DNA of 19,927 nucleotides from Candidatus Thorarchaeota archaeon (GCA_048882325.1 JBHLRS010000049.1:1-19927); one strand, 5' to 3'; counted from the first letter of the stretch, positions 3,828 to 19,927 are shown. The notes: generated from the letters alone by a model not told the origin. Numbers and translations are program-made.

Positions 3828-3907
3828 TTGAACCTGTATCACTAAATACATAAGCAGCCCCAAGCGAGCCTCTCTTGAATACTCTCCCAATGTAGGTGAG
3901 AATTACA

Positions 3908-4483
3908 ATGGCGATGGATTTCGCAAAAGGAATTACTGAATTTCGTTGGCACGGTCGTGGGGGCCAAGGCGTAGTGACAAGCAACCAGATGCTAGGTAAA
4001 GCCGCTCTTGCAGAAGGAGACTATATCCAGGCATTTCCTGAGTTTGGTCCTGAGAGGACTGGAGCACCAGTGAGGGCATTCTTGAGAATCAGTAAGAAGC
4101 CCATCCAAGTGTATGCTCAGGTGTACCATCCGGATGTGGTGGTCTGCATTGACCCCACCCTACTTGATGTTGTGAATCCTACCGAGGGACTCAAGAAGGA
4201 TGGCACTCTCGTGGTCAACAGCCGTTTAGAACCACAAACCATCAGGGATAAGTTTGGTTTCACGGGTGGTAAGGTTGTCACAGTTGATGCTAGCACAATT
4301 GCTATGGAGGTCATGGGTCGACCTTTTACCAACATGCCTACCATGGCAGCAGCAGTGAAGGTTACAGGTGTAGTATCTGTCGATACTGTAATCAACGAGG
4401 TTCTACAGAGATACCCCGGTAAGGTTGGAAACTTAAACAAGGTAGCAATTGAAAGAGCAGTAAAGGAGACTACCATAGGATGA
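3908..4483 (+). CDS. porC: Pyruvate/2-oxoacid:ferredoxin oxidoreductase, gamma subunit
   Basis: Motifs EFRWHGRGGQGVVT and QAFPEFGPERTGAPVRAF. ATG at 3908 is preferred because the ORF-track GTG at 3896 lies inside the RBS AGGTGA (3894-3899). Confidence 0.95.
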   Translation: MAMDFAKGITEFRWHGRGGQGVVTSNQMLGKAALAEGDYIQAFPEFGPERTGAPVRAFLRISKKPIQVYAQVYHPDVVVCIDPTLLDVVNPTEGLKKDGTLVVNSRLEPQTIRDKFGFTGGKVVTVDASTIAMEVMGRPFTNMPTMAAAVKVTGVVSVDTVINEVLQRYPGKVGNLNKVAIERAVKETTIG

Positions 4484-4788
4484 ATGAAAAATACAATGAG
4501 ATTCCAATTGCCGGGATTATTAAAGACCCGGGTAATTCACAGAAATACAAGACGGGAGGATGGCGTGCTCAAAAACCAATCCACAGTGACGAGAAATGTC
4601 TATGGATAAAGAATGGTACCTGCGGTCGATGTTGGATCTTCTGTCCAGATATGGCAGTTGTCCTGACTGAAAAAGATGGAAATTATCTCTACGCATTCAA
4701 TTACGATTACTGTAAGGGTTGTGGAATTTGTGCTACTGAGTGTCCAACGGACAGCATTCACATGCAGATGAATCATGTTGAAGACTAA
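4480..4788 (+). CDS. porD: Pyruvate/2-oxoacid:ferredoxin oxidoreductase, delta (ferredoxin-like) subunit
   Basis: Motifs YKTGGWR..KP, CGRCWIFCPD and YDYCKGCGICATECP. ATGA overlap with porC. Confidence 0.95.
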   Translation: MNEKYNEIPIAGIIKDPGNSQKYKTGGWRAQKPIHSDEKCLWIKNGTCGRCWIFCPDMAVVLTEKDGNYLYAFNYDYCKGCGICATECPTDSIHMQMNHVED

Positions 4789-5202
4789 ATCCAAGATAAT
4801 AGTGCAAAATAGACTAGAATTGTCCAGATTGAATCCCATATTAGCGTCTTGCCTTTAAGTCTTGGAGAACATTCCAATCGATTCAAGTTCCTATACCTAT
4901 TGTGTGCAAGGGGTGACATATTGGACATTGATTTATCAAAGTTAGTCTAGTTGATTAGGAGATATAGCCTATTGGAAGCTCGGTCATTACTGAGCTTTCC
5001 GAAGGAGATTCGCTCTCCTGCGTGGCTGATAATTCTCTCTTGTTCTTTGTCTAAAGAGACATATTTATTTATCAAAGTAAATAAGTAGATAAAGTTACAC
5101 AATGAAACTAAGACAATGTTCTATCATCAATAGGATTAACGTTTCATATTGAATTGACTGCTTACCAGCTTTAATATTCTATAATTGAAAGGTGAGAAAA
5201 GG

Positions 5203-5745
5203 ATGAAAAAGAAAATTACTTTTGCACTTCTCATTGTATTCCTTCTTTTCAACTCATTATCAAACCAGGTCAATGCAGACCAGCCTACGGCTGATAACAT
5301 TATTTTAGAATATGATTTCTCTTTACAGGAACTAACAGTGTCAGTCGTTCAGTGTACGCAGGTACTATGCCAATTAAGTGAGAATTATGTTTCACAGATT
5401 GCAATCTACAAAGTTTCTGTTCCTACAGATGTTTTCTTAGAGGAAAGAAACTATACCAAACCAGAACAGGCATGGGTGATGAGTGATTCGTTCCATGTAA
5501 ATGGATCTGAGGGTGATCAACTCAAAGTTCAAGTTTCAACGAAAGATTCTGATGATGCTGCATGGCCGGTTGTTACTAAATACATCACGATTAGTAATTC
5601 AACTCACACCGTTGCAGATTCACCTGGTACTCTTGAAACACCTAATACTATTCCAATGAAAATAATAACACAAATTGCGGCAATAGGTGGTATAATTCTA
5701 ATATTTGTAATAGGCGGTTTTGGAGGTAGAATTAAGAGAACTTGA
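5203..5745 (+). CDS. Hypothetical exported, C-terminally membrane-anchored protein
   Basis: ATG at 5203 after RBS AGGTGA. Signal peptide MKKKITFALLIVFLLFNSLSNQVNA, a beta-rich domain, a Thr/Pro linker, and a C-terminal TM with basic tail. Confidence 0.75.
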   Translation: MKKKITFALLIVFLLFNSLSNQVNADQPTADNIILEYDFSLQELTVSVVQCTQVLCQLSENYVSQIAIYKVSVPTDVFLEERNYTKPEQAWVMSDSFHVNGSEGDQLKVQVSTKDSDDAAWPVVTKYITISNSTHTVADSPGTLETPNTIPMKIITQIAAIGGIILIFVIGGFGGRIKRT

Positions 5746-5922
5746 GTCACTGTTTTTCGAGTTCGGATTCGTCAGTATTTAAAATTCCTCACGTATTTAT
5801 GACAAAGACAATATATCGGATGCATCTCTTTGGTTTACTCGTTGTTCAACTAGTATGAATACCTTCTATGCTTCAGTTGAGGAGATGCTGCTAAAGGACT
5901 GATGGTATTTCAAAAAATAATG

Positions 5923-6165
5923 TTATCCACCAGCAACTGGTGGAAAGATGACCAATAAATCTCCATCCTTTAATTGAAGGTCAATGTTTCGAACGTGTAC
6001 ACCATTTAAGAGTAACATCTTAGTCTTACTAATATCGATCTTAAGTTTTTCAAGAACTTCAGGAATAGTTCCAGATTCAAGTTCCAAAGGGAATGCCTCG
6101 CCTACCTCAGTCCCGGGAGGACTGAGATGCCTTAGTGTAGCGTATAGTTTGATGTTTACAATCAT
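5923..6165 (-). CDS. moaD: MoaD/ThiS-family sulfur carrier (ubiquitin-like, SAMP-like)
   Basis: 80 aa. N-terminal IKLYATLR and C-terminal LKDGDLLVIFPPVAGG with a free di-glycine. Lies downstream of aor. Confidence 0.9.
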   Translation of the reverse strand: MIVNIKLYATLRHLSPPGTEVGEAFPLELESGTIPEVLEKLKIDISKTKMLLLNGVHVRNIDLQLKDGDLLVIFPPVAGG

Positions 6166-6177
6166 AACATGACACCG

Positions 6178-6486
6178 CTAGTAGTAATCAACATCAAATT
6201 TGCCTTTTGTGATTCCATGACCGTTAATGTGATGACCGCCACAAAGCAAGACCATATTAAACGGAAATAGTCCAACTCTATCTCCATCTGAGAGGACCTG
6301 GTTCTTTTTGGCAATAGTCCCATTTATGAAACAATCACCAAGATCTTGAAGTTTAAGACCCATTCTAAGAATTAGTTCTGAATATGTTTCGTTCTCAACA
6401 AACTCCATCATAAGAATCGTATCTTCTGATAAACGACTTCCTTCAACCAGTTTCTTTAGACTTCCATAGAGATGTATCTCAATCAT
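6178..6486 (-). CDS. MoaD/ThiS-like protein with internal Gly-Gly and 18-aa C-terminal extension
   Basis: IHLYGSLK...FINGT...LSDGDRVGLFP is a beta-grasp pattern. It continues LLCGG-HHINGHGITKGKFDVDYY. Confidence 0.8.
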   Translation of the reverse strand: MIEIHLYGSLKKLVEGSRLSEDTILMMEFVENETYSELILRMGLKLQDLGDCFINGTIAKKNQVLSDGDRVGLFPFNMVLLCGGHHINGHGITKGKFDVDYY

Positions 6487-6533
6487 ACTCGTTGGGTCCT
6501 ATTAAATCAGATAAGACTTGTTGTTTGAAAAGC

Positions 6534-6560
6534 AAAAAAGGAAGGGGGAAGTTCCCCTTC
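6534..6560 (-). terminator. Intrinsic terminator-like hairpin plus U-tract after aor
   Basis: GAAGGGG (6541-6547) pairs with CCCCTTC (6554-6560). The A6 run at 6534-6539 reads as U6 on the minus strand. It starts 15 nt after the aor stop. Confidence 0.65.
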
Positions 6561-6575
6561 AACCATATTTCTGAG

Positions 6576-8369
6576 TTACATTCCCTTAAAGACTTCATCC
6601 AGCTCCGAGTCTGGAACATCAAATGTTACATCATGAGGCGGAAGCTTCTCTGTGTAGAAGAACTCAGCTAATCTGTCATCATTCTTTGTAAATCCAGCTC
6701 TTTTGTTGAAGTCTCTTTCATTCTTGAGAATTGATAGACCGAACTCCACTGGGTCAATTTCCTTACCCAAGAAACCATTTATTGTGTCAACCATTCCATT
6801 ATGACCGCTGTCAACATCATTGGTTGCAAATGTAATGAACAAACAGTATCCTGTGAAATCAACATATGCAGTTACTGCCTGGAAGGTTCGCGATAGTTCT
6901 GCCTTTTTTATATCTCGAGGATCTGTAATCTCACCTTTGATTCCGAGAATTTCTGCGGCAACTGTGTAGCCAGCTGTGTGATCAGCTCCTTGAGGAGTTG
7001 TTGCATAGGTCACACCAATACCCTTGACTGGACGGGGATCATATGCTGGTAGTCCTTGACCCTTAGCTACAGGAATCCTTGTCACACCAAGAGTTCTACC
7101 TGCATTAAGTGCTCCCGCACCTACTAGACGACCCATGGCAGATTTCTCGTCGTAAGCCTCTTTCAAAGCAGCAATAGCTCCAGCACCATCACCAAACTCA
7201 AGAAGACCCGATTCCATAATGACACCAAGTGTACAACCAGTTTCGATAGTATCAAGGCCGATATCATTACAAAGTCTGTTCAGCTCTGCAACATCAGAAA
7301 GTTTTCCGATTTCGAGGTTGCTACCAAGCGACCATGCAGTTTCATACTCAAGTGGTGAAACATGGGCCTTTCCAGTGTCTTCATAAGGAACTACATTAGA
7401 ACATGCAATTATGCACCCAGGATGGCATGAGTGAGCATATCGACCTTCAGCGGCATCACCAAACTTTTCCTTTGTTTTATCCACAAGTTCATGGACTGCT
7501 TCTCCTGAGATTTTAGCAGCATCCTTGAATCGACCAGACCTGAAGTTTCTAGTAGGTAGTCCACCTGCTTCGCTCATCACAGTTTGAAGGACATTTGTAC
7601 CATAATTCTTGAGACCTCCAAAGGGTTCTCCTTTATCATCTTTGAGATTTCCAGTAACACCATGACCTTGTAATGCTTCAACCAGAGCTTTTCGACCCTT
7701 TTCATATCGGTCTTTGTCTTTTGGCTCAGGTCTCTCAGCACCAGTGGGGTCACTAATCACAGTGACTACTCGTTTTGATCCCAAAACTGCACCTAATCCG
7801 CCGCGACCTGCATATCGACCTGGGTCAGAATTTTCAATATTGTTACCAAAAACACCAGCTCCAGCTAGAAGACGTTGACCAGCGATGCCACAACCAATAA
7901 TTCCTGGTTTGACTGGATAATCTTTCCAGACCTTCGCAATGATTTCATATGCTCCGATGCCTGCATATTTGTTTGTTTTCACAATTTCACATTTATCTTT
8001 GCCAACCACTATACTATACCAATCCTTGGTTCCAGCTGGTGGTGCTCCTTCAATGATGATACCTTGGACTCCAAGACGACCTAAACGATTGCCAGTTAGT
8101 CCTCCAGCATTTGCTTCTTTAATACCACCGGTTAAAGGTGACTTTGCACCGACACTTAGGCGACCTGAAGATGGAGCAGTTGTTCCAGCAAGAAGCCCCG
8201 GGGAAATTATCAACTTATTCTTCTCTCGGAGTGGGTGACACGTTGCCTCAACCTCTTCGTTAACGACTGCTGAGGTGAGAGCTCGCCCAGCAAGATCTTT
8301 GTACTTAGCGGGAATATTCTCCCATTTGTGGGTTAAATCACTCATATTTACTCTAAGCAGTTTTCCCAT
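6576..8369 (-). CDS. aor: Tungsten-dependent aldehyde:ferredoxin oxidoreductase (AOR family)
   Basis: Motifs KSPLTGGIKEANAGG, AGRGGLGAVLGSK, CHPGCIIAC, PLEYET, GLDTIE, PAYDPR and GADHTAG. ATG at 8369 follows RBS GGAAGGAG; TTG at 8378 is the alternative start. Confidence 0.95.
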   Translation of the reverse strand: MGKLLRVNMSDLTHKWENIPAKYKDLAGRALTSAVVNEEVEATCHPLREKNKLIISPGLLAGTTAPSSGRLSVGAKSPLTGGIKEANAGGLTGNRLGRLGVQGIIIEGAPPAGTKDWYSIVVGKDKCEIVKTNKYAGIGAYEIIAKVWKDYPVKPGIIGCGIAGQRLLAGAGVFGNNIENSDPGRYAGRGGLGAVLGSKRVVTVISDPTGAERPEPKDKDRYEKGRKALVEALQGHGVTGNLKDDKGEPFGGLKNYGTNVLQTVMSEAGGLPTRNFRSGRFKDAAKISGEAVHELVDKTKEKFGDAAEGRYAHSCHPGCIIACSNVVPYEDTGKAHVSPLEYETAWSLGSNLEIGKLSDVAELNRLCNDIGLDTIETGCTLGVIMESGLLEFGDGAGAIAALKEAYDEKSAMGRLVGAGALNAGRTLGVTRIPVAKGQGLPAYDPRPVKGIGVTYATTPQGADHTAGYTVAAEILGIKGEITDPRDIKKAELSRTFQAVTAYVDFTGYCLFITFATNDVDSGHNGMVDTINGFLGKEIDPVEFGLSILKNERDFNKRAGFTKNDDRLAEFFYTEKLPPHDVTFDVPDSELDEVFKGM

Positions 8370-8436
8370 AATGATCAAACTCCTTCCTTTCGGTTCTCAT
8401 TTTGCACCTAATATTCGTTGTGGCCAAGAGGTACAT

Positions 8437-8464
8437 ATCGACATGCATGTTTATGCATAACGAT
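8437..8464. promoter_or_regulatory. 28-bp pseudo-palindrome resembling a ModE (Mo/W-responsive) operator upstream of aor
   Basis: ATCGACATGCA-TGTTTA-TGCATAACGAT: 11-bp arms matching at 9/11 with a 6-nt spacer. Same geometry as the ModE consensus ATCGNTATATA-N6-TATATANCGAT. Confidence 0.5.
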
Positions 8465-8535
8465 TTGTTTTCGCTGAAAATGAATATTTTCGATGGTAAT
8501 CGAAAAATAAAATCAATCAAAAAAGATATGTCACA

Positions 8536-8584
8536 ATAAAAAGAGTGTTGGAGCTTCGTGCGATATTCTACCGCACTAGCTCCA
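8536..8584 (-). terminator. Hairpin plus T-rich tract ending the permease operon
   Basis: TGGAGCT(tc)GTGCG...CGCAC(t)AGCTCCA at 8549-8584, followed on the minus strand by CTCTTTTTATT. Confidence 0.5.
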
Positions 8585-8609
8585 TGTTTTGGATCGATAT
8601 CAAATCACG

Positions 8610-8963
8610 TTATCCACGTCTGGCCATGAATCCACGAATCAGAAGGAGTATCCCAATGACAAGTACAACCATGGAGAGGATTTGATATCCTCCCATTAGT
8701 ACATGTACGGAAAAACTCAGGTAGCTTGCTAAACCAAACAAAGTAACAAGCATTCCAACTCGTAGTTCCATAATACCGATTTGCTTCGTGATGAGTTCAG
8801 ACAGACCGATAAACACGATCACTAAACCAGGCCATAACCAATAACCAAATCCTCCGAATAGCCACCAGCTAAATAGCGTGACTACTATTCCAAAGACCAT
8901 GATTTCTAGTTGACCGACTATTCCTACGCTTGCGACGTTTCCAATAGTACTTTCTTCTGTCAT
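8610..8963 (-). CDS. Small hypothetical integral membrane protein (about 4 TM)
   Basis: About 117-120 aa, almost entirely hydrophobic, with a basic C-terminus. ATG at 8963 (or TTG at 8972) follows AGGGGG directly after the upstream stop. Confidence 0.75.
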   Translation of the reverse strand: MTEESTIGNVASVGIVGQLEIMVFGIVVTLFSWWLFGGFGYWLWPGLVIVFIGLSELITKQIGIMELRVGMLVTLFGLASYLSFSVHVLMGGYQILSMVVLVIGILLLIRGFMARRG

Positions 8964-8976
8964 CAAACTCAACCCC

Positions 8977-11013
8977 CTAAGTAAACCGGCCTCCCGGATG
9001 TGCTATGATTGCTTGCAATTCAGCAATCGCATAGCTCCATGAACCAACAGAACCAGCCAGAACATGATTGACAAATGACAAGATTTCTCTCGTCCTATCA
9101 CCAATCGTGATGAGATTCAAGAGGTGATAATCAACCTTGTACTGAAAGAGCTTACTTGTGTGCTGGAATGCATAAAGTGCCTTATAGTAGTCACCAGCTG
9201 GATATGAGGCACTTACATTTGCGTAGAAACCCAACAGTGTTGAGTTAGTTTCGGATGTGTAAGCTGTCCGATTTAGCTCAACAAGGCGATCAAGCTCCTG
9301 AAGTGTTGCTAAATAGTCCTCAGCAATTGGGACTAGTCCATTGACGGTTTCATTGTTGATGAACTCAAACACACTTACAAGTTCATCAAAGGATGTAGCT
9401 TCATCAGACGCCTCAAATGGCATGAATGGTCCTTCACCAGCCCAAGAAGTCGGTAGGATTTGATGTGGTTCTGAAGCAAAATTCTCTGTTGCATAGAACC
9501 AGCTTTCAATCATTCCCTGAGCTTCATCGATTAGTGCAAGGTTCACAGGATCTGTTATCGACGCTTTCAACAGGTTCAGTTTGTGATACTCATATTGAAA
9601 GTGTACTGCATCTCGTTGTATATCGTTTAGTTGTTCGTAGACCTCGTGTGCATATGTTTCCACAGTTGAATCATACCATAATCCAAGTGCAAAATAGTGA
9701 TCTCCCGCTCTAAGGTTAACAATTTCAGTTGCGACCCGCATTGTTTCTGCAAGTATTGGTTTGATTTCAGCAACTGTTGATGTGATTGAGTTGACTCTTT
9801 CTGCAGTGATATCAGCAGGCAGAGACGCACTGGGAGATAGTCTTGACCCTTGTACGTCATCAGCAACATAGTACAGGGCCTGTGCATAGATTCTAGCACC
9901 AGGTCCAGGCCATTCTGGATGTGGTGAGAAAGTCACAAATTGACCTTCACCAACCGGTCCAGTCAGGATACCTGGTGAGCCCCAAATATTCTCTACAATT
10001 GGAGAGGCTAATTGAGTAATTGGTGCTTCAAATCTACCTAGGACTTCTACACCAGGACCAAGAGATTCTTCAACTATAGCTGGTCCGCCATAATAGTAAA
10101 TGTTCACAAACTCGTAGCCAGGTCTTACTGCACCGGGACCATATCCAAAGGTCACAGGATTTGTAGGATCCTCTACAGATAATGAAATTGGTCCAATAAG
10201 AGTCCTCCAATGAGGCTCCCAGTACTCATCATGGTCGAACCAATCATAGCTGTATGATGCATTAACAATGTCCAAACTAGTATAGGGCGTTTGTATCAAA
10301 GATTCTGTCGCACCTGCGCATACTCCGATATATCCACCTCCATGTCGAAGGAACTCTGTTATGTTAGCGATAGCATTGGCTCGAGTAACGCCATAGGGGA
10401 ATGAATAGAGATGCAAAGCACCTCCTGGCATTACGAATACATTAGAGTGACTAAGTGGATTACTTGTGTCATTCCACCAAGAGGAATAAAGGTCGACAGC
10501 ATTTGCTAGAACAACCTTGAAACCCAACTCTTGGAACCTTTGGTAGTGCACTAATGCGTTCAGATATGTACTCGTATCATAGAACAGAGTTATCCTGGGT
10601 AAGACCAGTGCCTGAGCATTGGCTGTGAAGCTCACATCGTTTGTAATATCGATTCTCCAAACTCTGTAATTCTTCGCCTCATCCTTTAACCATCTAACGG
10701 TTTTAGCGCTACTGACTCCCAGTCTCGTTGTGAACGGAGTTTGGAAGTAGAATGTACCTGCAGGATAGGTTACACCACCTGCAGTGAACGATTCTTGCGC
10801 CCACATCACTGGAACTTCTTCTTCCAGTAATTGATTCACTAATTCAATCACACCGACATCATCATTTTTGATCCAATCTTCCATTGGTAAAATGATGGTC
10901 CGAGGTGTTTCAGCTTGTGCGGCCGATGGAGGAATTAGGATTAGCGACAGCAGCATTAAGGCCGCAAGACTCATAATTTGTAGTCGTCTGCTTTTTTGTT
11001 TTAATTTAATCAA
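8977..11013 (-). CDS. Secreted class I glutamine-amidotransferase-fold (BPL_N-like) protein, putative amidohydrolase/peptidase, with helical C-terminal domain
   Basis: In-frame TTG at 11013 follows GAGGAGGT, 1 nt after the permease stop (ATG at 10974 is the alternative). Signal peptide KLKQKSRRLQIMSLAALMLLSLILIPPSAAQA. Motifs VFVMPGG, GGGYIGVCAGA (nucleophile Cys) and FSPHPEW (His-Glu). Confidence 0.75.
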   Translation of the reverse strand: MIKLKQKSRRLQIMSLAALMLLSLILIPPSAAQAETPRTIILPMEDWIKNDDVGVIELVNQLLEEEVPVMWAQESFTAGGVTYPAGTFYFQTPFTTRLGVSSAKTVRWLKDEAKNYRVWRIDITNDVSFTANAQALVLPRITLFYDTSTYLNALVHYQRFQELGFKVVLANAVDLYSSWWNDTSNPLSHSNVFVMPGGALHLYSFPYGVTRANAIANITEFLRHGGGYIGVCAGATESLIQTPYTSLDIVNASYSYDWFDHDEYWEPHWRTLIGPISLSVEDPTNPVTFGYGPGAVRPGYEFVNIYYYGGPAIVEESLGPGVEVLGRFEAPITQLASPIVENIWGSPGILTGPVGEGQFVTFSPHPEWPGPGARIYAQALYYVADDVQGSRLSPSASLPADITAERVNSITSTVAEIKPILAETMRVATEIVNLRAGDHYFALGLWYDSTVETYAHEVYEQLNDIQRDAVHFQYEYHKLNLLKASITDPVNLALIDEAQGMIESWFYATENFASEPHQILPTSWAGEGPFMPFEASDEATSFDELVSVFEFINNETVNGLVPIAEDYLATLQELDRLVELNRTAYTSETNSTLLGFYANVSASYPAGDYYKALYAFQHTSKLFQYKVDYHLLNLITIGDRTREILSFVNHVLAGSVGSWSYAIAELQAIIAHPGGRFT

Positions 11014-11014
11014 A

Positions 11015-12598
11015 TTATTGAACCTCCTCAACTCTCTTAAGTATGCTATAACCCATCCCCACAAAAATGGCTGCAGCAACGACTAATGTTGTAGCAGTTG
11101 CTAATAAATCAACCGAGGCAAAGGGTGCAAGAATGTGCCACCAGAGGATAATGCCACTATAGAAGTTGTACCAGAAAGCAAATCCAGCTACAACCACAAT
11201 TAGTGCAATAAGGGACAACAGCAAACCCAACCAATGAACTTTTGGTACTGCAGGTTTGGTTCCCATTTCTGTTCCTCTTGCAAAGACCTTGGGTCTGAAA
11301 CAAGCATTAACGAAGACCAGAAAGACCCCAAGGACAAGCCAAATTAAGAGCATGAATTGAAAACGGAAGGGTAGTCCAACAATGACAAACCAAGAACAAA
11401 GAATGATACCAGCAAGCGGTATCAGCCCATGAAGGACTATGTTCTTGATTCCCCAACCATCCTTTTTGTAATGCCAGTATGCAAGGAAGTTAGTAAGGAT
11501 GAAAGCTGGAATAGCTCCAGAAGCTAATACATACACGATAACTTCCCATGGCACAAATTCAGCTAAGACCAATGTCACCACTGAAACAAAGAGAATTGAA
11601 GCGAGTGGTGTAATGTATTTTGTCTTGGTCTTACTGAATGCAGTTGGGAGAATATTATCTTCGCCTAATTTCTGAACCAATCTACTTGTTGCAGTTACAG
11701 CAGCCAAAGCAGATGTGATACCAGCTAATATTCCTGCAAAATTAAGGAGATTTGCTAAACCTCCACCCCAAATGACTTCAGCCATATAGGGAACAGGATT
11801 GAAGAAGTATTGTAAATTAAACAATCCTCTTGTAGGGATAGCTAATACAAATGCCCATGCAAGGAATGTATAGATAACAGTCCCAAGGATGGCTGAGAGC
11901 ACAATTGCCCTCGGGATATTTCTTGTTGGTTCATTTGTTTCTTCAGCCATTGTCGCTGATGACTCATATCCGATATATGAGAAAATTGCGACAGTTGCTC
12001 CAACCATAATTCCTGCGACCCCAAATAGAGATCCACTAGGTGTGAAGGCCAGTCCAGCCATAATATCATAACTGCCAGAAGACAACGACCAACCGATCGA
12101 GCTTCCAGCAAAAATGAATAGAATGGCGATTTCTATAATGAATAGGATTGCCATTGTTCTAATGCTTAATACAGCACCAAAAATGGAGAGTAGCATTACA
12201 ACCACTGCAAAAACTAATACGATTACCCATGGTGCGATTCCGAGCCAATAATAGGCAAAGAAGCCTACGGGGATAAGAGCTGCTGCTGGAGCAACAATCA
12301 ATTCTAGTAAATATATCCAGACTGATAATTGTCCAAACTTTGGTCCTAAAGTATCCTCCGCAAAATTCCAGATACTACCGGATTTTGGATAAGCTTTTAC
12401 AAGTTCTGCAAATGAAATGGCTGTGATAGTAGCGGCAATTCCAGCAACTAAGTAATCTAATGGAATTGCAATCCAGGAAAACCCTGCTGCTAACACAAGA
12501 CTGAATGTTGCTAGGAAAGAAAGCGCTGGCGCCATAAATGCCAGGCCTAATACAACATTCTGCCATAATCCGTATTTGCGTATTTCAGTTTCCGCCAT
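11015..12598 (-). CDS. APC-superfamily amino acid/amine permease
   Basis: 527 aa with about 14 hydrophobic segments. Motifs GLAFMAP (TM1), SFAELVKAYPKSGS, FSYIGYESSATMAEETNEPTRNIPRAI and SRLV...G..NILP. Confidence 0.93.
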   Translation of the reverse strand: MAETEIRKYGLWQNVVLGLAFMAPALSFLATFSLVLAAGFSWIAIPLDYLVAGIAATITAISFAELVKAYPKSGSIWNFAEDTLGPKFGQLSVWIYLLELIVAPAAALIPVGFFAYYWLGIAPWVIVLVFAVVVMLLSIFGAVLSIRTMAILFIIEIAILFIFAGSSIGWSLSSGSYDIMAGLAFTPSGSLFGVAGIMVGATVAIFSYIGYESSATMAEETNEPTRNIPRAIVLSAILGTVIYTFLAWAFVLAIPTRGLFNLQYFFNPVPYMAEVIWGGGLANLLNFAGILAGITSALAAVTATSRLVQKLGEDNILPTAFSKTKTKYITPLASILFVSVVTLVLAEFVPWEVIVYVLASGAIPAFILTNFLAYWHYKKDGWGIKNIVLHGLIPLAGIILCSWFVIVGLPFRFQFMLLIWLVLGVFLVFVNACFRPKVFARGTEMGTKPAVPKVHWLGLLLSLIALIVVVAGFAFWYNFYSGIILWWHILAPFASVDLLATATTLVVAAAIFVGMGYSILKRVEEVQ

Positions 12599-12695
12599 TG
12601 CGAGTACCTAAACGATGTTTCGTGGCGAGCCTCTACTTAAGGATTATGCTATTATTTTAATTTACTTTAACTATAATTATGAAATATTAATCAAA

Positions 12696-12720
12696 TATAG
12701 ATAAAGGTATAATATCTATA
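12696..12720. promoter_or_regulatory. Inverted repeat in the AT-rich divergent promoter between the permease and alanine aminotransferase
   Basis: TATAGATA (12696-12703), a 9-nt spacer, then TATCTATA (12713-12720), within a very AT-rich 166-bp intergenic region. Confidence 0.3.
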
Positions 12721-12764
12721 GAAACTAATATACGGCGTCATAGTACAGCACGCTAGAAGATAAA

Positions 12765-13964
12765 ATGAAGCTTAATATCACACCACGCGCCGCAAATCTC
12801 CAATATGCAATTCGTGATATAGTTGTTTTAGCAAGACAATACCAGAAGAAAACTGGTGAAAAACCACTTTATCTTAATATAGGAGATCCAATTAAGTATG
12901 ACTGGGAAACACCCCAATATATGGTAGATGCAATTTGTAATGCTACACAAGATGGATGGAATGGATACTCTCCGTCAGAAGGAGAAGAGCAACTTCGGAT
13001 AGCTGCAGCAGAAAAGGAAAAACGAGTTAATGGTATTGATGTGGACCCAAATCGGATGATTGTTACTGCAGGAGTTTCAGAAGCGATTCAGTTCCTCACA
13101 GGTGCGTTAATTGATAATGGCTCTGAACTATTAGTCCCCGGTCCAAGTTATCCTCCATATGTCAGCTATGTGAAATTTTTTGGAGGTATACCTGTTTCAT
13201 ATAGAACCATTGAGGAAGAGGATTGGAACCCGGACACTGAGGACCTGCGAAAGAAAATCACCGACAAAACAAGGGGAATTCTTGTTATCAACCCCAACAA
13301 TCCAACTGGTTCCGTATATAATGAGAAAATATTGAAGGAGATTGTTGGGATAGCTGGTGAACATGAGCTTCCCTTGATATCTGATGAAATCTACGATCAG
13401 CTTACGTATGACAAAAAACAAACTCCGATGGTCCGAATAGCAAAAGATGTACCAGTAATTGGATTTAACGGTGTAAGCAAAGTGTATCTGGCTCCAGGAT
13501 GGCGTGTTGGGTACACATATTTCTGTGACTCAAATGGAGAGCTTGATCCTCTGAATGATGCTATGATTCGTCAAGCTAGAGTAAGGATATGTTTGAACTC
13601 CCCAGCACAAATCGCATCTGCGGTCGCGCTTGCAGGTGATGGTAGTCATCTGAAAGCAACAATGGAACGTCTACGTATCAGGAGGGATTTTATTTACAAG
13701 AGACTGAATGAGATTGATTCAGTCTCAACAAGGCTACCTGAGGCTGCATTCTACATTATGCCCAAAATAGATCTACGCGGTAGATGGAAGGATGATGCCG
13801 AGTTTGTCAAGGATGTTCTTGCGAATACTGGCGTAGTCTTCGTTCCAGGTCGTGGTTTTTGTGCAGAGTATGGTGCGGGACACTTCAGGAGTGTATTTCT
13901 CCCTCCACCATACATGATTGAAGAAGCAATGAATCGTTTAGAAGAATTTATGGCCAAACACTAA
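12765..13964 (+). CDS. alaA: Alanine aminotransferase (class I/II PLP), Thermococcales AlaAT/AlaA-like
   Basis: Motifs YAIRD, LNIGDP, PGPSYPPY, INPNNPTG, SDEIYD, NGVSKVYLAPGWRVGY (PLP Lys) and GHFRSVFLPP. Confidence 0.88.
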   Translation: MKLNITPRAANLQYAIRDIVVLARQYQKKTGEKPLYLNIGDPIKYDWETPQYMVDAICNATQDGWNGYSPSEGEEQLRIAAAEKEKRVNGIDVDPNRMIVTAGVSEAIQFLTGALIDNGSELLVPGPSYPPYVSYVKFFGGIPVSYRTIEEEDWNPDTEDLRKKITDKTRGILVINPNNPTGSVYNEKILKEIVGIAGEHELPLISDEIYDQLTYDKKQTPMVRIAKDVPVIGFNGVSKVYLAPGWRVGYTYFCDSNGELDPLNDAMIRQARVRICLNSPAQIASAVALAGDGSHLKATMERLRIRRDFIYKRLNEIDSVSTRLPEAAFYIMPKIDLRGRWKDDAEFVKDVLANTGVVFVPGRGFCAEYGAGHFRSVFLPPPYMIEEAMNRLEEFMAKH

Positions 13965-14156
13965 AATCGGTCATAATCTAGGAACCGTCATGGAATAGAA
14001 TGCAAGTCTGGATAACATGATTTACATTTTATCACAAATGGGAAATTTGCTTCTGCTTTTTCAAGACACAGTGCATCTGACATTTCCTTTTTCTGCATTA
14101 AAATCAATTAAACTGACTCAACTGGTCAAGCTTGTGATTTTGAAAATAAGGTGAAA

Positions 14157-14181
14157 GTGGTCCAGAACTGTGCTGGACCAC
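14157..14181. terminator. Hairpin between convergent aminotransferase genes
   Basis: GTGGTCCAG (14157-14165) and CTGGACCAC (14173-14181) form a perfect 9-bp stem. A T-rich run follows on the minus strand. Confidence 0.5.
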
Positions 14182-14223
14182 CTCCCCTCAATAACCAAGC
14201 ATCGAGGAAAATTGTGTTATGTC

Positions 14224-15534
14224 TTATGCTATTTCCTTTAAGACTTCGTCAAGAACATCTAGGACTTTATCTGCTTGCTCATCAGTAATCGATAAGGGTG
14301 GTTTGAGTTTTATGATGTTGCCAACACCACCGATATTCGAAACACCGAAAAAGACTCCTTTCTCAAGAGCTTTTACAAATGCCTCTCCAGCTTCGTCGAT
14401 AGCAGGAGCTTTTGTTTTTCGGTCCTTGACTAATTCAACACCAATGAAAAGTCCAGGCCCTCGGACATCTCCAATTATCTTGTGATCCTCTTGCATCTCC
14501 AGTAATCTTTTGGTCATCCTCTTGCCTTGCGCTGCAGCCTTGTCAGCAAGTTTCTCTTCCTGCATAACATCAATGGTTGCATTGGCAGCGGCACATAGTA
14601 CAGGTCCACCTCCAAAGGTGAAGATGTGCCATTGACTATCAGGCATGTCCTTGGGAACATGGTCCTTGTTTATGACGGTTGCAGACACTGGCATTCCACC
14701 ACCGATAGCCTTCGCGGTTGTGAAGATATCTGGTGTCACGCCGTAATAATCACAGGCCCAAATCTTGCCGGTCCTACCCATTCCTGTCTGAATCTCATCA
14801 GCAATGAAGAAGATACCGTACTTATCACAGGTTTCCCTAATGATTTTGAAATATTCTGGATCTGGAGGGCATTGATGTCCACCATTACCTTGAATTGGTT
14901 CAAGGATAAACGCAGCTACTCCGTCCTCAGTTGCGCCATATTTTACCTGTTGTTCAAGGGCTCTTGCACATTCAAAGTCGCATCCGGGGTATTCCTTCCC
15001 ATAAACACACCTATAGCAGTATGCGTTCGGAATTTGACTGAATCCTGGGAATCTTGGATAACCCTTTATAATATAGGATTGACCAAGAAGACTCATCATT
15101 GCAAGGGTGCCACCATGGTAAGAGTAATGCACCGAAATTGCTTCACGCCTTCCAGTTATTTGCATTGCGAGTTTCAAAGCTGTCTCATTGGCTTCAGTTC
15201 CACCACATGAGAAGTAAGACATTGCATTTCCTTTCATTTTTCCAGGAGCAATATCTGACAGTTTCTTAGCAAGTTCTGCCCTTGGAGGGTTAGTGAACAT
15301 AGTCAGTGTGTGGGAAATCTTCGCTACTTGATCTTGTACTGCTTTCACGTATTTTGGATGAGAATGACCTATCCCTAATACTCCAGCCGTCTGACCCAGA
15401 GCGTCGATGTATTCTTTCCCATCAATGTCTCGTACTATGGCTCCTTTGCCTTCGACGAACACGATTGGGGAATAGCCCCAGCCATGTAGGCAATGTTCTC
15501 GACTTTGTTTTATTATTTCATCTTTCGACGGCAT
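14224..15534 (-). CDS. Class III PLP-dependent aminotransferase (omega-amine/GABA-AT/AGXT2-like)
   Basis: Motifs DIDGKEYID, GGTEANETALK, SYHGGT, EPIQGNGG, IADEIQTGMGRTG, PDIFTTAKAIGGG (PLP Lys), TFGG and GDVRGPGLFIGVELV. Confidence 0.93.
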   Translation of the reverse strand: MPSKDEIIKQSREHCLHGWGYSPIVFVEGKGAIVRDIDGKEYIDALGQTAGVLGIGHSHPKYVKAVQDQVAKISHTLTMFTNPPRAELAKKLSDIAPGKMKGNAMSYFSCGGTEANETALKLAMQITGRREAISVHYSYHGGTLAMMSLLGQSYIIKGYPRFPGFSQIPNAYCYRCVYGKEYPGCDFECARALEQQVKYGATEDGVAAFILEPIQGNGGHQCPPDPEYFKIIRETCDKYGIFFIADEIQTGMGRTGKIWACDYYGVTPDIFTTAKAIGGGMPVSATVINKDHVPKDMPDSQWHIFTFGGGPVLCAAANATIDVMQEEKLADKAAAQGKRMTKRLLEMQEDHKIIGDVRGPGLFIGVELVKDRKTKAPAIDEAGEAFVKALEKGVFFGVSNIGGVGNIIKLKPPLSITDEQADKVLDVLDEVLKEIA

Positions 15535-15890
15535 TTTAAGTCAAAGAATGTTGATTCACGCTATTATTAAGTGTTATTTAATTAATAATTGTTAATCCAA
15601 GATTTTGTGGGAGGTACATATAAACAGAATAATGCAAAGTCATATTCTATCCTATTTTTAGCAATTTGCTCGTAATAATTCATCACTTTGAAGCTGGTCA
15701 CGGACTGGTTTCTACGACCCTATAGAAGACGCATTCTTAAAGTAATCATCAAATCTCTTAAAGACTGCAATAAATTCTCATTATTTTTCTTTTCAACAAT
15801 TATTCTAGGTCTTTACTCATATGTAAGGATTTTTTGCGCTAGATTATTAAGACTTGGAAAGTTCAACAGCAACTCGATGGACCATTCTAC

Positions 15891-17036
15891 ATGAGCAATC
15901 AACTTGATTACACCTTTGGAGAATCAGAAATGTCCTATGACAAATGTGTCCGCTGCGGATCCTGCCTGATGTTCTGTCCTATGTTTGATGCAACTGGGGA
16001 GGAACAGTACTCACCACGGGGAAAGACCTACCTTTTACAGGTCATGGACGAAATCGATGATGACAAAGAACTGGCAAAGGAGTTCAGACAGCTTTTGTTC
16101 GAATGTACACTCTGCGGTCGCTGCGAAGAAAAGTGTGCCTCTGGAGTAGATTTGCTCAAAATCTGGCATGAACAGAGAGCCAAAGCAATTGAAAATGCAC
16201 CGGAGGAGTTTACATACCTTGAGCCATTAAAGAATGCATTAGCTAATGTGAAGAACATCTACGGTCTTGCAGCTGAGGATAGAGCAATCTATTGGCTAGA
16301 TGAACTGGAGGATGAGTTTCCAGGACTGGAGGAACGGGTTTATGAGAGACGCAAAACTGCAGAAGTCATGGTGTTTCTAGGTTGCCTTATGTCGTTCCGG
16401 GGAAGTCAGATTGGCGTGCTCAGGTCACTCTTCCAGACTCTAGAGGAACTAGATGTCGACTATCTAGTAATGGGTTCAGAGGAGTTCTGTTGTGGACACC
16501 CCCTCTATCTAATGGGAGATGATGAGGGAGCTGAGAAACTGAGGCAACACAACAAAGGAGTCATAGAAGCAGCGAAAACAAAGAATGTGATTACATGTTG
16601 CCCAGGCTGTCTCATTCAGTTGAGAGAACACCACAATCTTGACAATGTTGAGGCACTCCATCACACTCAGTTCTTTGACCGAAAACTAAAGACAATTCCG
16701 AAGTACAATCAGACAGAGGAGTTCTCCTATCACGACCCCTGTGAACTTCATAGAATTCTCGAAATAAAGACCGAACCCAGATCAGTCATAAACAAGATGG
16801 GAATCGAGTTCAGAGAGATGGACCTTAGTTGCTGCGGAGGTGGTGGTCTGCTTAGAATGACTGACTCAAACCTCAGTGACAAGATTATTCAACTCAAGGC
16901 GGCGCGAGAGAGTGTGAAGGACACCACAGTTATCACAGCCTGTCCCTCTTGCAGAGAGCAATTACTTGGTCAAGATTTGAATACCAAGGACATAATGGAA
17001 TTGATGTCTGAAGCGCTTGAGAGTGATGGTAAATAA
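15891..17036 (+). CDS. (Fe-S)-binding oxidoreductase subunit with 2x[4Fe-4S] and two CCG domains (GlcF/GlpC/HdrD family)
   Basis: Motifs CVRCGSCLMFCP, SPRGK, CTLCGRCEEKC, FLGC, EFCCGHP, TCCPGC, YHDPC, CCGGGG and TACPSC. Confidence 0.92.
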   Translation: MSNQLDYTFGESEMSYDKCVRCGSCLMFCPMFDATGEEQYSPRGKTYLLQVMDEIDDDKELAKEFRQLLFECTLCGRCEEKCASGVDLLKIWHEQRAKAIENAPEEFTYLEPLKNALANVKNIYGLAAEDRAIYWLDELEDEFPGLEERVYERRKTAEVMVFLGCLMSFRGSQIGVLRSLFQTLEELDVDYLVMGSEEFCCGHPLYLMGDDEGAEKLRQHNKGVIEAAKTKNVITCCPGCLIQLREHHNLDNVEALHHTQFFDRKLKTIPKYNQTEEFSYHDPCELHRILEIKTEPRSVINKMGIEFREMDLSCCGGGGLLRMTDSNLSDKIIQLKAARESVKDTTVITACPSCREQLLGQDLNTKDIMELMSEALESDGK

Positions 17037-18373
17037 TGAGAATAAAAGATGTTGCCATTGGCGCAAATGCAAGCATGTACTACAAGCTCGACTTCAGAAA
17101 AATCAAGGGAGTCTACTACCCCAGAAATACGCAGGAAGTCATCGCAGCAGTCAAGCATGCTAAAGACAATGGTTTCACCGTGACTCCGAAGGGTGGCGGA
17201 TCAGGACTCAGTGGAGCGTGCACTGGAGGAAAGGATGAGAGAGTCATGATTAGCAGCCTCCAGATGAAAGAGATTCTAACAATATCTAAGGATCAGGGGT
17301 ACATTGATGTCCAACCAGGTATCAATCCAAACCAGATTAACGCAATTCTAGATCCAATGGGTGTGCACTTCTATGTAGCCCCGAGCAGCAGAGATATCGC
17401 TACTGTTGGTGGGATTCTCAGCACTGACGGCGGTGGAAACGACACCTGGGTCAATGGTACAATGAGAGACAATACCATCCATGTAAAGATGGTCCTCTAT
17501 GATGGTCGTCTGTTGACAGTTGACAAGAAGGGAGTCAAGAGTAATGATGCAGACCTCGAGGAGAGGCTCAACAAGATTGGTGTCACGCTTCATGACGTGG
17601 CAAGCTCGCATGGAACACTTGGATTCATTACAGAGATGCGACTCCTCATTAAACCTACAGTGAATGAAGCTCTCATTGGTGGTGTCACTGAATTCCCAGA
17701 ATGTAATGCACTTGGGAAAGCTCTAACTGAAATGATAAAGAAAGGCAGTCCCATCAGATATGGAGAAGTAATCTCTTTTGTACATGAGGATATTCGCGAG
17801 GACTTGAAACCACCATTACAAATCGTTGAGTTTCCTGCAGAATATAAATCAGACATCAGCGAGATTATTGAATTAAAAGCACTTGATTATGAGCAGTTAG
17901 CCCGAATGAAGGAATTCAGAATCAATATGGCAAAACGAAATCCGAAAAAAGGACAACAAGTATCACTTTTTGAGGGATATGGTTTCCATGGAAATAATCT
18001 TTTGAAGCTACAAGATAGTATTAATGAAATAGATGAGTTACTTGCTTCTCAAGGCATGACTCCTTTTGCAAAATACGGACATGGACCTAGCAAATGGTAC
18101 AGGGGTGACAACACTGCAACCTTTGGGCTTATTCTTCATTCGAACGAGATATACCCTGAAAATAAGACTAGAAGCGAATTACTAAAAATAGTACTCAAAA
18201 TTGTGGACAAGTGTGATGAGTTGGGACTCACTCCAAAACCCGAACACAAATGGCCATTTTCGGATGAGGTTAAAAAGAAGCGACTTGATAAAATCAGACA
18301 AGTCATTGGAGAAGGTTTCAATCCGTTCATCCTTTCACCAGAGTGCAATAATGTTTTGAGTTCCATGATTTAG
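17036..18373 (+). CDS. FAD-binding oxidoreductase (PCMH/FAD_binding_4; GlcD/D-lactate dehydrogenase-like)
   Basis: Motifs P...QEV, PKGGGSGLSGA, ATVGGILSTDGGG and SHGTLGFITE, with C-terminal GH...ILH...PEH. TAATG 1-bp overlap with the Fe-S gene. Confidence 0.88.
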   Translation: MRIKDVAIGANASMYYKLDFRKIKGVYYPRNTQEVIAAVKHAKDNGFTVTPKGGGSGLSGACTGGKDERVMISSLQMKEILTISKDQGYIDVQPGINPNQINAILDPMGVHFYVAPSSRDIATVGGILSTDGGGNDTWVNGTMRDNTIHVKMVLYDGRLLTVDKKGVKSNDADLEERLNKIGVTLHDVASSHGTLGFITEMRLLIKPTVNEALIGGVTEFPECNALGKALTEMIKKGSPIRYGEVISFVHEDIREDLKPPLQIVEFPAEYKSDISEIIELKALDYEQLARMKEFRINMAKRNPKKGQQVSLFEGYGFHGNNLLKLQDSINEIDELLASQGMTPFAKYGHGPSKWYRGDNTATFGLILHSNEIYPENKTRSELLKIVLKIVDKCDELGLTPKPEHKWPFSDEVKKKRLDKIRQVIGEGFNPFILSPECNNVLSSMI

Positions 18374-18579
18374 GAAAAGGATCTGTAGATAGATAGCCTT
18401 CAGTGACATTTCGCCCATATTGGAGGATTTGTCTTCTGTGGTTCACAACATATAATCTACAAGATTAGGAGAACTTTCGTATTGAGTAATAGATAGCATC
18501 CAGAAAGCAAGATACTTATACAACAGCAATTGACCTTCGCATAATCAACATCTTGGAGAGCCCAGTAATATTGACGAAA

Positions 18580-19752
18580 ATGGTAGTTGAAGGATTAACT
18601 GGAAATGACGCTATTGCTTATGCGTTTAAACAAGCAGACCTAGACGTTATGGCTGCTTATCCCATAACGCCACAGACTTTGATTGTTGAGCAGTATCAGA
18701 AATTTGTGGCAAATGGAGAAATCAAGGCACGTGTCATTCCAGTAGAATCGGAACACTCAGCTATGAGTGCATGTGTTGGAGCTTCTGCTGTGGGCGCCAG
18801 AGTCGCAACTGCTTCAGCTTCAGCTGGACTGGCTCTCATGTGGGAAATACTATACTGTGCAGCATCGATGAGGATGCCAATCGTATTTGCAGTGGCAAAC
18901 CGGGCGTTATCCGGGCCAATTAACATCCACAATGACCATTCAGACGGAATGGGAATGCGCGACAGTGGATTCATCCAACTATATTGTCAAAGTTCCCAGG
19001 AAGCATATGATACAACCATCATGGCATTCAAACTTGCAGAGCGCCACGATGTGTTACTCCCAGTGATGGTCGGTATTGATGGATTTATCGTTAGTCACAA
19101 CGTCGAACGAGTAGAGATGCTCCCTGATGATGTTGTTCAGAAGTTCCTTGGAGTGCGTGAGCCATTTATAGTACTAGACCCTGACAACCCCATCACCATG
19201 GGTCCACTTACACTCACAGACTACTACTTTGAGTTCAAGGAGCAACAAGAGGAAGCGATTATGGGTGTGCCCAAGGCATACAAGGAGATTGAGGCAGAGT
19301 TCTCAAAACTCACAGGTCGTAAATACGGTCTCTTTGAAACCTACAAGACAAACGATGTAGACATCATCATCGTAGCAATGAGTTCCATGGGAGGAACAGC
19401 TAAGGTTGTTGCGGATGCAATGCGTGAGAAGGGTGACAAAGTTGGTGTCGTTCGACTCAAGATGTTTAGACCGTTCCCTGCAAAGGAGATTGCTAAGGTC
19501 CTTGGAAAAGCAAAAGCAGTAGCAGTCTTCGAGAAGGCAATGTCCTTCGGAGCAGCAACACATCCACTCGCTCTAGAGGTCAGAACTGCCCTCTATGATG
19601 CCAAGGAAAGACCCATGGTGGTCGACTTTGTGGTTGGACTGGGTGGTCGTGACGTTCCCCCTACAACATTCGTTGAAGGAATCGAGAAGACTAAGGAATA
19701 CCTCAAGAAGGGTGAAGCTCCGATGTACGAAACATTGGGGGTGCGCAAGTAA
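18580..19752 (+). CDS. porA: Pyruvate/2-oxoacid:ferredoxin oxidoreductase, alpha subunit
   Basis: Motifs GNDAIAYA, AAYPITPQT, VESEHSAMSAC, ANRALSGPINIHNDHSD, DGFIVSH, FRPFP and GLGGRD. Start at ATG 18580 (TTG 18571 or 18553 are alternatives). Confidence 0.96.
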   Translation: MVVEGLTGNDAIAYAFKQADLDVMAAYPITPQTLIVEQYQKFVANGEIKARVIPVESEHSAMSACVGASAVGARVATASASAGLALMWEILYCAASMRMPIVFAVANRALSGPINIHNDHSDGMGMRDSGFIQLYCQSSQEAYDTTIMAFKLAERHDVLLPVMVGIDGFIVSHNVERVEMLPDDVVQKFLGVREPFIVLDPDNPITMGPLTLTDYYFEFKEQQEEAIMGVPKAYKEIEAEFSKLTGRKYGLFETYKTNDVDIIIVAMSSMGGTAKVVADAMREKGDKVGVVRLKMFRPFPAKEIAKVLGKAKAVAVFEKAMSFGAATHPLALEVRTALYDAKERPMVVDFVVGLGGRDVPPTTFVEGIEKTKEYLKKGEAPMYETLGVRK

Positions 19753-19927
19753 TGAGTGATAAACCGGCAGTCTCAATCAAGGACATGCTCAAGCGCGAGC
19801 CAATTATCAGCTCAGGGCACAGAATGTGTGCAGGTTGCGCTGCGCCGCCAGTGATCAAGCTAATGGGGATGGCGCTTCGCGGTCCCACCATCATCTGTAA
19901 CAACACTGGATGTCTTGAGGTAGCTAC
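19752..19927 (+). CDS. porB: Pyruvate/2-oxoacid:ferredoxin oxidoreductase, beta subunit (5' part, runs off the window)
   Basis: Not in the ORF track. The ATG overlaps the porA stop (TAATG). Translates MSDKPAVSIKDMLKREPIISSGHRMCAGCAAPPVIKLMGMALRGPTIICNNTGCLEV, with the GHxxCAGC and TGCLEV motifs of PorB. Confidence 0.93.
   Translation, partial: MSDKPAVSIKDMLKREPIISSGHRMCAGCAAPPVIKLMGMALRGPTIICNNTGCLEVA

Follow-up and report, generated by a model that had tools for sequence, protein, structure and literature searches.

A 19,927-nt contig of a sediment-dwelling Candidatus Thorarchaeota archaeon (GCA_048882325.1, JBHLRS010000049.1:1-19927; all of contig C49 in a 3.6-Mb genome that is 93% complete, and here called the window) carries a group of probably catabolic genes set into an operon for pyruvate:ferredoxin oxidoreductase (POR). 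The set encodes an exported hydrolase, an APC-family permease, a class III aminotransferase, an alanine aminotransferase-like enzyme (AlaAT), an aldehyde:ferredoxin oxidoreductase (AOR), and an FAD/CCG protein pair. We consider it likely that these genes describe a route from an amine and pyruvate to an aldehyde and then an acid, with recycling of alanine. To the fuller reading, that the cassette is a horizontally moving accessory set for the anaerobic breakdown of a 2-hydroxy amine, we give about an even chance; read from sequence, the candidate substrates would most likely be of the ethanolamine, 1-amino-2-propanol, or 3-amino-1,2-propanediol type. An initial annotation of this DNA had proposed a route leading from hydrolase, permease, and transaminase through AOR and a 2-hydroxyacid dehydrogenase to POR. 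Every open reading frame that it listed was found in place with matching family hits, as was the nesting of the set between por genes (porG-porD before, porA-porB after).

The class III pyridoxal 5′-phosphate (PLP) enzyme (14224–15534, minus strand) clearly belongs to PF00202 (340.7 bits against a cut-off of 30.5; D246, E247, and K275 invariant, with K275 as the PLP lysine) and represents a subfamily that has no name and comprises about 120 proteins (48% identity or more), over 118 of which we counted residues. Its motifs are HGWG, QTAG, GNGGH, QWHIFT, and Lys409-x-Lys411. It scored below all of the curated cut-offs compared: argD (286 of 410 bits), GABAtrnsam (292 of 507), putrescine aminotransferase (275 of 612), LeuMetRace (324 of 800), and PbfA (313 of 525). 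The initial annotation had named a racemase or an acetylornithine aminotransferase as identities that would break its scheme. Neither fits, because the enzyme lacks their signature residues: it has Asn217 where isoleucine 2-epimerase has Asp, and Gly142, Asn217, and Lys409 replace the Arg/Glu/Arg set at positions that we take to be diagnostic of γ-aminobutyrate (GABA) and acetylornithine aminotransferases. A taurine reading was also dropped, as the Trp19/Arg156 of a taurine aminotransferase could be neither aligned nor found in papers, and the window enzyme lacks the Arg. In Mycobacterium sp. 141 (L238:8439-12276), a divergent subfamily member is flanked by genes for an APC permease and PdxS, with a MocR-type regulator close by, a neighborhood with a possible link to vitamin B6; a vitamin B6 reading of the window enzyme was rejected because it was based on this one divergent member.

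We regard the class III enzyme as a probable amine:pyruvate transaminase, judging from its gene neighbors. Pyruvate-linked transamination is favored because two unrelated alanine-recycling enzymes adjoin members of the subfamily. In the window, this enzyme is the class I AlaAT-like protein (12765–13964, plus strand; PRK08363 at 525.1 bits, short of its cut-off of 534, with the next model at 236), a second copy that is 83% identical to the resident copy on contig C10. In loci L191 and L192, its slot is filled by alanine dehydrogenase (AlaDH; 350 bits in L191 against a cut-off of 392), and AlaDH also occurs at L020 (505 bits, above the cut-off).

The initial annotation had made its pathway depend on recurrence of the gene families in other genomes, and the core chain of permease, transaminase with alanine recycling, and aldehyde oxidation does recur in synteny. 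L191, from a genus-mate, preserves both the full set and its order, with AlaDH for AlaAT and an aminotransferase 93% identical to that of the window, at a site between malic enzyme and nitroreductase genes. Genome G364 carries the cassette beside a fad paralogue. At L183, an aldehyde dehydrogenase (ALDH) gene is followed in one row by genes for aminotransferase, permease, hydrolase, membrane protein, GlcD, and CCG protein, so that ALDH and a canonical GlcD/F stand in for AOR and the FAD pair. A ParB-fold gene at L183, considered as an amino-alcohol kinase, was ruled out because it carries the ParB helix-turn-helix. A second version of the cassette (Odinarchaeia, a sister family, L020, and L262) has this aminotransferase subfamily together with a different permease and a dehydrogenase of the GldA family, adds metallophosphoesterase-like and nucleotidyltransferase-like genes, and includes AOR except at L020, where AlaDH and GldA lie beside the aminotransferase. 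At L262, permease, phosphoesterase, nucleotidyltransferase, aminotransferase, GldA, and AOR form a single operon. The phosphoesterase-like and nucleotidyltransferase-like genes, neither over a family cut-off, were also found together beside APC permeases and AORs in both archaea and bacteria (L016:12668-16254, L020, L185, L262, and G000 C11:29252-38121).

Enrichment was judged against 92 loci of other, generic class III enzymes retrieved with the aminotransferase alignment. AOR was found near 7 of 11 subfamily loci and 1 of 92 controls; the corresponding counts were 3 and 0 for alanine recycling, 4 and 1 for GldA, and 5 and 0 for a hydroxyacid dehydrogenase, and one or the other of the last two types was nearby in 8 of the 11 (against 1 and 0 of 92), but the 11 loci amount to about five independent events and were picked in part because their contigs were long, and most of the controls belong to other types of microbes. 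The enrichment is therefore overstated, and informative in its direction, not its size.

The GldA association bears on the class of substrate. The GldA neighbors score over the cut-off for glycerol dehydrogenase, with glycolaldehyde reductase as the next-best model, and occur on separate branches of the aminotransferase tree. A close GldA is present in seven of the eight Asgard genomes that have the aminotransferase, and a matching GldA in only 1 of 86 genomes of the family, that of the window (contig C5). A glycolaldehyde reductase has been described (PMC9700705), and GldA acts in the route from hydroxyacetone or lactaldehyde to 1,2-propanediol (PMC8600716). Together with the fold and ligands of the FAD protein described below, the GldA links suggest that the product is a 2-hydroxy aldehyde and that the substrate is therefore an amino alcohol. 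The 2-hydroxy amine favored by the initial annotation thus gains independent support, although which amine it is cannot be read from sequence.

The AOR-family enzyme (6576–8378, minus strand; 600 aa) has AFOR_N and AFOR_C domains and the 4Fe-4S cysteines, and its best solved relatives are AORs (E 4e-68). Family membership would imply a tungsten cofactor; no WtpA was found in the genome, which encodes two PBP_like_2 proteins of unassigned specificity. A MoaD/SAMP-like sulfur carrier encoded nearby (5923–6165, minus strand; ThiS E 7e-9) ends in Gly-Gly, is kept in L191 and L193, and may serve in pterin cofactor supply for AOR. The initial annotation had counted two MoaD-like proteins. This one stands, whereas the other (6178–6486, minus strand) is a ubiquitin-fold, ThiS/Ub-Mut7C-like protein that lacks a C-terminal Gly-Gly and is not a canonical MoaD; it has a paralogue on contig C18 (37%). 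Behind its internal Gly-Gly is a 19-residue tail, conserved in L191, and by analogy with ubiquitin precursors, the protein could be a precursor that is clipped.

The FAD/CCG pair consists of a GlcF/HdrD-like protein with two [4Fe-4S] clusters and two CCG domains (15891–17036, plus strand) and a divergent FAD-dependent D-2-hydroxyacid dehydrogenase of the D-lactate dehydrogenase/GlcD fold (17036–18373, plus strand), which are second copies, 83% and 78% identical to those on contig C19. The FAD protein keeps the metal ligands His349, His368, Glu403, and His404, and its fold resembles D-lactate dehydrogenases; by both marks, it belongs with the FAD-dependent D-2-hydroxyacid dehydrogenases. The pair falls far short of the equivalog cut-offs (glcD 95 of 568 bits; GlcF 90 of 333). 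The resident ccg-fad pair (L014:5887-13574; C19 of G000) is a core, divergent predicted D-2-hydroxyacid dehydrogenase, and it lies with malic enzyme and a GcvH-like gene, the latter named by eye from its sequence, across Thorarchaeia.

The permease (11015–12598, minus strand) has extra C-terminal helices and belongs to a tight family of 46 proteins; a close relative, at 86%, is labeled Ca. Thorarchaeota. The gene behind it encodes an exported 678-aa BPL_N protein (8977–11013, minus strand) with a class I glutamine amidotransferase (GATase) fold and a helical C-terminal bundle; it starts with TTG at 11013, 1 nt past the permease stop, and the protein is identical to database protein P0121. The initial description of this protein as a secreted Cys-His-Glu hydrolase held up: the triad Cys232-His365-Glu367 is intact and invariant in 67 homologues (in a family of 68 proteins), the predicted model (pLDDT 91) matches class I GATase-like proteins, and the N-terminus has a hydrophobic, signal-like stretch. 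Fold and triad place it among class I GATase-like hydrolases, and it is probably an amidase. It does not qualify as a PuuD γ-glutamyl-GABA hydrolase (peptidase C26), as the family search gave only BPL_N matches; no characterized close relative was found and no PDB sequence matched at E 1. Relatives at 38% identity occur in Methanothrix and Methanotrichaceae (P0181, P0182), and G364 has a second, closer copy (74% to the window; L019:16326-17244) that directly follows the first unit and is truncated where the contig stops. A search of 351 genomes from the class of one Bathyarchaeia genome gave no hydrolase match but had no positive control and is uninformative. Directly behind the hydrolase gene in every readable locus is a gene for a 120-aa membrane protein with four helices (8610–8972, minus strand; 12-sequence alignment and hydropathy), and in all loci read, these two genes and that of the permease make up one fixed three-gene unit.

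Put together, these parts suggest the following route. Outside the cell, the exported amidase would free the amine from an amide conjugate, the weakest step, and the cotranscribed permease, assigned by family, would import it. The class III enzyme would then transfer the amino group to pyruvate, as its context suggests, giving a 2-hydroxy aldehyde and alanine, and pyruvate would be regenerated by AlaAT here and by AlaDH in relatives, a step well supported by the gene swap. AOR would oxidize the aldehyde to a 2-hydroxy acid while reducing ferredoxin; alternatively, the GldA-family enzyme encoded on C5 could use the aldehyde as an electron sink, turning it into a diol. The FAD/CCG pair, placed here by its fold, would convert the hydroxy acid to a 2-oxo acid. 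A C3 substrate would thus yield pyruvate for POR, and ethanolamine would yield glyoxylate, probably bound for glycine and glycine cleavage: conversion of this glyoxylate to glycine is likelier than its passage to POR because neither malate synthase nor EutB was found in the genome and the glycine cleavage P protein is present. The initial proposal ended in an arrow to POR; as a designed link this was rejected, since the insertion into por is unique to this genome and relatives carry the cassette elsewhere. Only tentatively do we suggest that the exported cysteine amidase, its own permease, the four-helix partner, and the Lys-x-Lys transaminase subfamily make up an undescribed anaerobic pathway for amino-alcohol head groups, one found in both archaea and bacteria of sediments; the accompanying proposal of a branch point at the hydroxy aldehyde (by AOR to the hydroxy acid or by GldA to the diol), with neither B12 nor a microcompartment, is likewise tentative.

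Besides the overstated enrichment, several observations weigh against the breakdown of a 2-hydroxy amine by this cassette. Of 85 family genomes, 43 have the AOR clade, and most of these lack the cassette. The FAD/CCG pair belongs to the family core (66 of 85 genomes), and its copies in the window nest among those of the genus and have host-like GC content at third codon positions (GC3); because it is core and nests in this way, the pair is possibly a traveling recombination anchor. No GldA was found in G364 (85% complete), which has the aminotransferase. The aminotransferase itself has a phospho-lyase-like Lys-x-Lys motif, with Lys where Arg is usual, and the replaced Arg is presumably the one that usually binds the pyruvate carboxylate. 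It also has Ile156 where 93 of 118 relatives have Arg, so its substrate may differ from theirs. Many relatives of the permease carry the label “putrescine importer,” an automatic JGI name. The three-gene unit lies apart from the aminotransferase in Odinarchaeia and occurs without it in one Bathyarchaeia genome; because the unit can stand alone, and because unrelated AORs follow it in Bathyarchaeia-type loci, it is the tie of the hydrolase to the substrate of the other enzymes that is weakest.

The permease labels are the main support for an unlikely alternative, the scavenging of polyamines or γ-glutamyl amines by an anaerobic counterpart to the Puu/Pat routes of E. coli (pathway in PMC9397018). 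Here, the exported GATase-fold enzyme would cleave γ-glutamyl or acyl amides from protein breakdown, the PuuP-like permease would import a diamine, the transaminase would make an amino-aldehyde, AOR would convert this to an ω-amino acid, and the FAD/CCG pair, being a core gene set, would be a passenger. With its class I GATase triad and fold, the hydrolase can be likened to PuuD, whose fold we take to be of the same type, and the L183 ALDH scores best, if below cut-off, on aminobutyraldehyde and betaine-aldehyde models. However, PuuD is cytoplasmic and the window hydrolase exported, the JGI names are automatic, and the aminotransferase falls well short of the putrescine and GABA models. Moreover, the repeated GldA and GlcD neighbors would be left unexplained, as would the presence of GldA in this genome alone within the family. 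Improbable as well, in our judgment, is a mosaic of three independent modules with different substrates (the permease-hydrolase-membrane protein unit with AOR, the aminotransferase with alanine recycling, and the duplicated ccg-fad pair as recombination anchor) brought together in a few Thorarchaeia. Such modules do occur apart in other genomes, the AORs beside the hydrolase unit are not orthologous (29%), and the window cassette is divided into four transcription units on both strands. The cassette also abuts the local fad gene, not a cassette-specific lineage, in three of three Thorarchaeia cases, as homology-anchored insertion would predict. Nevertheless, the two main modules were joined independently in L183 and in Thorarchaeia. 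Among 400 Asgard genomes searched, the aminotransferase was found in eight and the hydrolase in seven, and six of the nine with either main module have both. The repeated swap of genes for nonhomologous ones with similar roles suggests that function has been under selection and counts against a mosaic.

The Lys-x-Lys motif raises another possibility: the class III enzyme could act as ETNPPL and PbfA do, as an ammonia-lyase (phospho-lyase) that takes an O-phospho amino alcohol to aldehyde, ammonia, and phosphate without pyruvate, with AOR making the acid. We consider this very unlikely. Lys409 and Lys411 are nearly invariant (113 and 115 of 118 relatives) and align with the same motif in the human ethanolamine-phosphate phospho-lyase (6tor), and a metallophosphoesterase-like gene lies near many relatives. 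Yet alanine-recycling genes, for two unrelated enzymes, adjoin the aminotransferase in two lineages, the cassettes contain no kinase gene, and the PbfA score is far below cut-off. At alignment positions 77–81, where phospho-lyases presumably have a phosphate-binding Arg, no Arg is among the common residues. A lyase would also strip the hydroxyl, leaving GldA and GlcD without a role. That class III enzymes include such lyases is established (PMC8154272). Weighing these accounts, we retain transamination of a 2-hydroxy amine as the preferred reading.

The cassette lies within an insert of about 13.8 kb (4789–18579) that splits porD from porA, as delimited by homology breaks, the por order of relatives, and bridging contigs. 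Its flanks are porG-porD (3896–4788) and porA-porB (from about 18580). Relatives match the DNA up to 4768 and again from 18586, and porG and porA are spaced by about 900 nt in all 24 informative genus genomes (both genes on one contig). Single contigs of a public run, X2, possibly the source sample of the assembly, bridge both junctions (3916–5691 and 17497–19058). The insert is therefore real, and misassembly as the cause of the split operon is ruled out. Because genus relatives keep porG and porA adjacent and carry the cassette at other sites, its location in por is an insertion accident and the link to POR incidental. GC3 is 0.30–0.39 in the cassette core against 0.40–0.47 in the por, pks, and ccg/fad genes, consistent with horizontal arrival, and the AlaAT, CCG, and FAD genes are all second copies, 78–83% identical to resident genes.

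By its gene content and ends, the insert does not qualify as an integrative mobile element: no integrase, transposase, or recombinase gene was found among the window open reading frames and family matches, and no long terminal repeat at the insert ends, only a 7-nt repeat at the junctions. This 7-mer, GTTGAAG, lies at both edges (4777–4783 and 18586–18592), where homology stops and resumes. It may be what is left of a target-site duplication within the 5′ end of porA, but the window contains five copies in all, so its placement may be due to chance. A circular intermediate joining fad to the gene at 5185, an idea taken from G001:C16, was rejected, as the 5185 family is scattered and shows only about 30% similarity and the junction regions have no significant similarity (p ∼ 0.36). 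Through the split, porD (4480–4788) gains a new C-terminal tail and porA (18553–19927 region) loses its first residues, with a likely start at ATG 18580. Judging from this arrangement, porAB must now be driven either by a new promoter or by transcription out of the insert. The contig end truncates porB, and no remainder of it was found in the assembly.

The insert also includes a passenger gene for a small surface protein with hydrophobic N- and C-terminal stretches (5185–5745, plus strand), of a scattered Thorarchaeia family and missing from the L191 cassette. The initial annotation had arranged the genes around two divergent promoters. Two AT-rich divergent gaps are indeed present, but a σ70 promoter scan, a type that does not cover archaeal promoters, gave only background. 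One gap, between permease and AlaAT (12599–12764; GC 0.30), is conserved in its permease-proximal part in L191 and L193. The place of the other, between the aminotransferase and CCG genes (15535–15890; GC 0.31), is taken in L191 by the malic-enzyme gene. Pattern matches gave a terminator-like GC hairpin with a T-run after the AOR gene (6541–6560, minus strand) and a 13-bp hairpin after the aminotransferase gene (14153–14185, minus strand). Outside the insert, directly before porG, is a type III polyketide synthase gene (2712–3827; chalcone-synthase-like, with Cys-His-Asn motifs) in this Asgard archaeon; a 94% identical copy occupies the same site in G019, and it is missing there in three other relatives. 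A β-helix (NosD-like) surface protein (1072–2334) has many family copies in the genome, and the copy number at this site varies among relatives.

The decay of lipids and proteins commonly releases ethanolamine and related amino alcohols, for which the classic anaerobic route requires B12. If our reading is correct, the cassette would let Asgard archaea and further microbes of sediments draw carbon, nitrogen, and low-potential electrons from amino alcohols. Two uncharacterized families (the aminotransferase, with about 120 proteins, and the exported amidase, with 68) would gain a short list of candidate substrates, and a catabolic cassette would be seen moving between Thorarchaeia, in one case splitting the POR operon. 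We found no description of the cassette or of its two protein families in the literature searched.

The combination of transaminase, alanine recycling, and aldehyde oxidation is an already known scheme; taurine:pyruvate aminotransferase, for example, works with Ald. The E. coli PatA-PatD and ω-amine:pyruvate routes share permease, class III transaminase, alanine recycling, and aldehyde oxidation with the cassette, which differs in its unnamed aminotransferase subfamily, AOR in place of NAD-ALDH, the exported amidase, and the hydroxyacid dehydrogenase and GldA partners. B12-free use of ethanolamine is known in Actinobacteria: Streptomyces proceeds by γ-glutamylation (PMC6529630), and a route reported for Mycobacterium, through glycolaldehyde and glyoxylate to glycine, is summarized in PMC6529630 and PMC9397018. 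The latter has the intermediates proposed here for ethanolamine and needs no B12, but the cited papers name no genes for its steps, whereas here there is an anaerobic, ferredoxin-linked archaeal gene set with a putative substrate. Streptomyces GlnA4, acting through γ-glutamyl-ethanolamide (PMC6529630), and E. coli puu (PMC9397018) likewise place an amine permease beside a glutamine-amidotransferase-type hydrolase and an aldehyde-oxidizing enzyme. In contrast, the cassette has no glutamine-synthetase-like ligase, its hydrolase is exported and much larger, and its amine is proposed to be transaminated. ETNPPL (PDB 6tor) and PbfA (PMC8154272) share the class III fold and a near-C-terminal Lys-x-Lys with the window enzyme, which has alanine-recycling neighbors, lies far under the PbfA cut-off, and lacks a kinase partner. 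Finally, the FAD protein resembles LDHD (8jdb), a Porcellio enzyme (9qit), GlcD/GlcF, and LctD in fold (TM score ∼0.66), His-His-Glu-His ligands, and Fe-S/CCG partner, but its identity to them is only about 20%, its GlcD score is far below cut-off, and it belongs to a Thorarchaeia-wide gene that normally stands beside malic enzyme.

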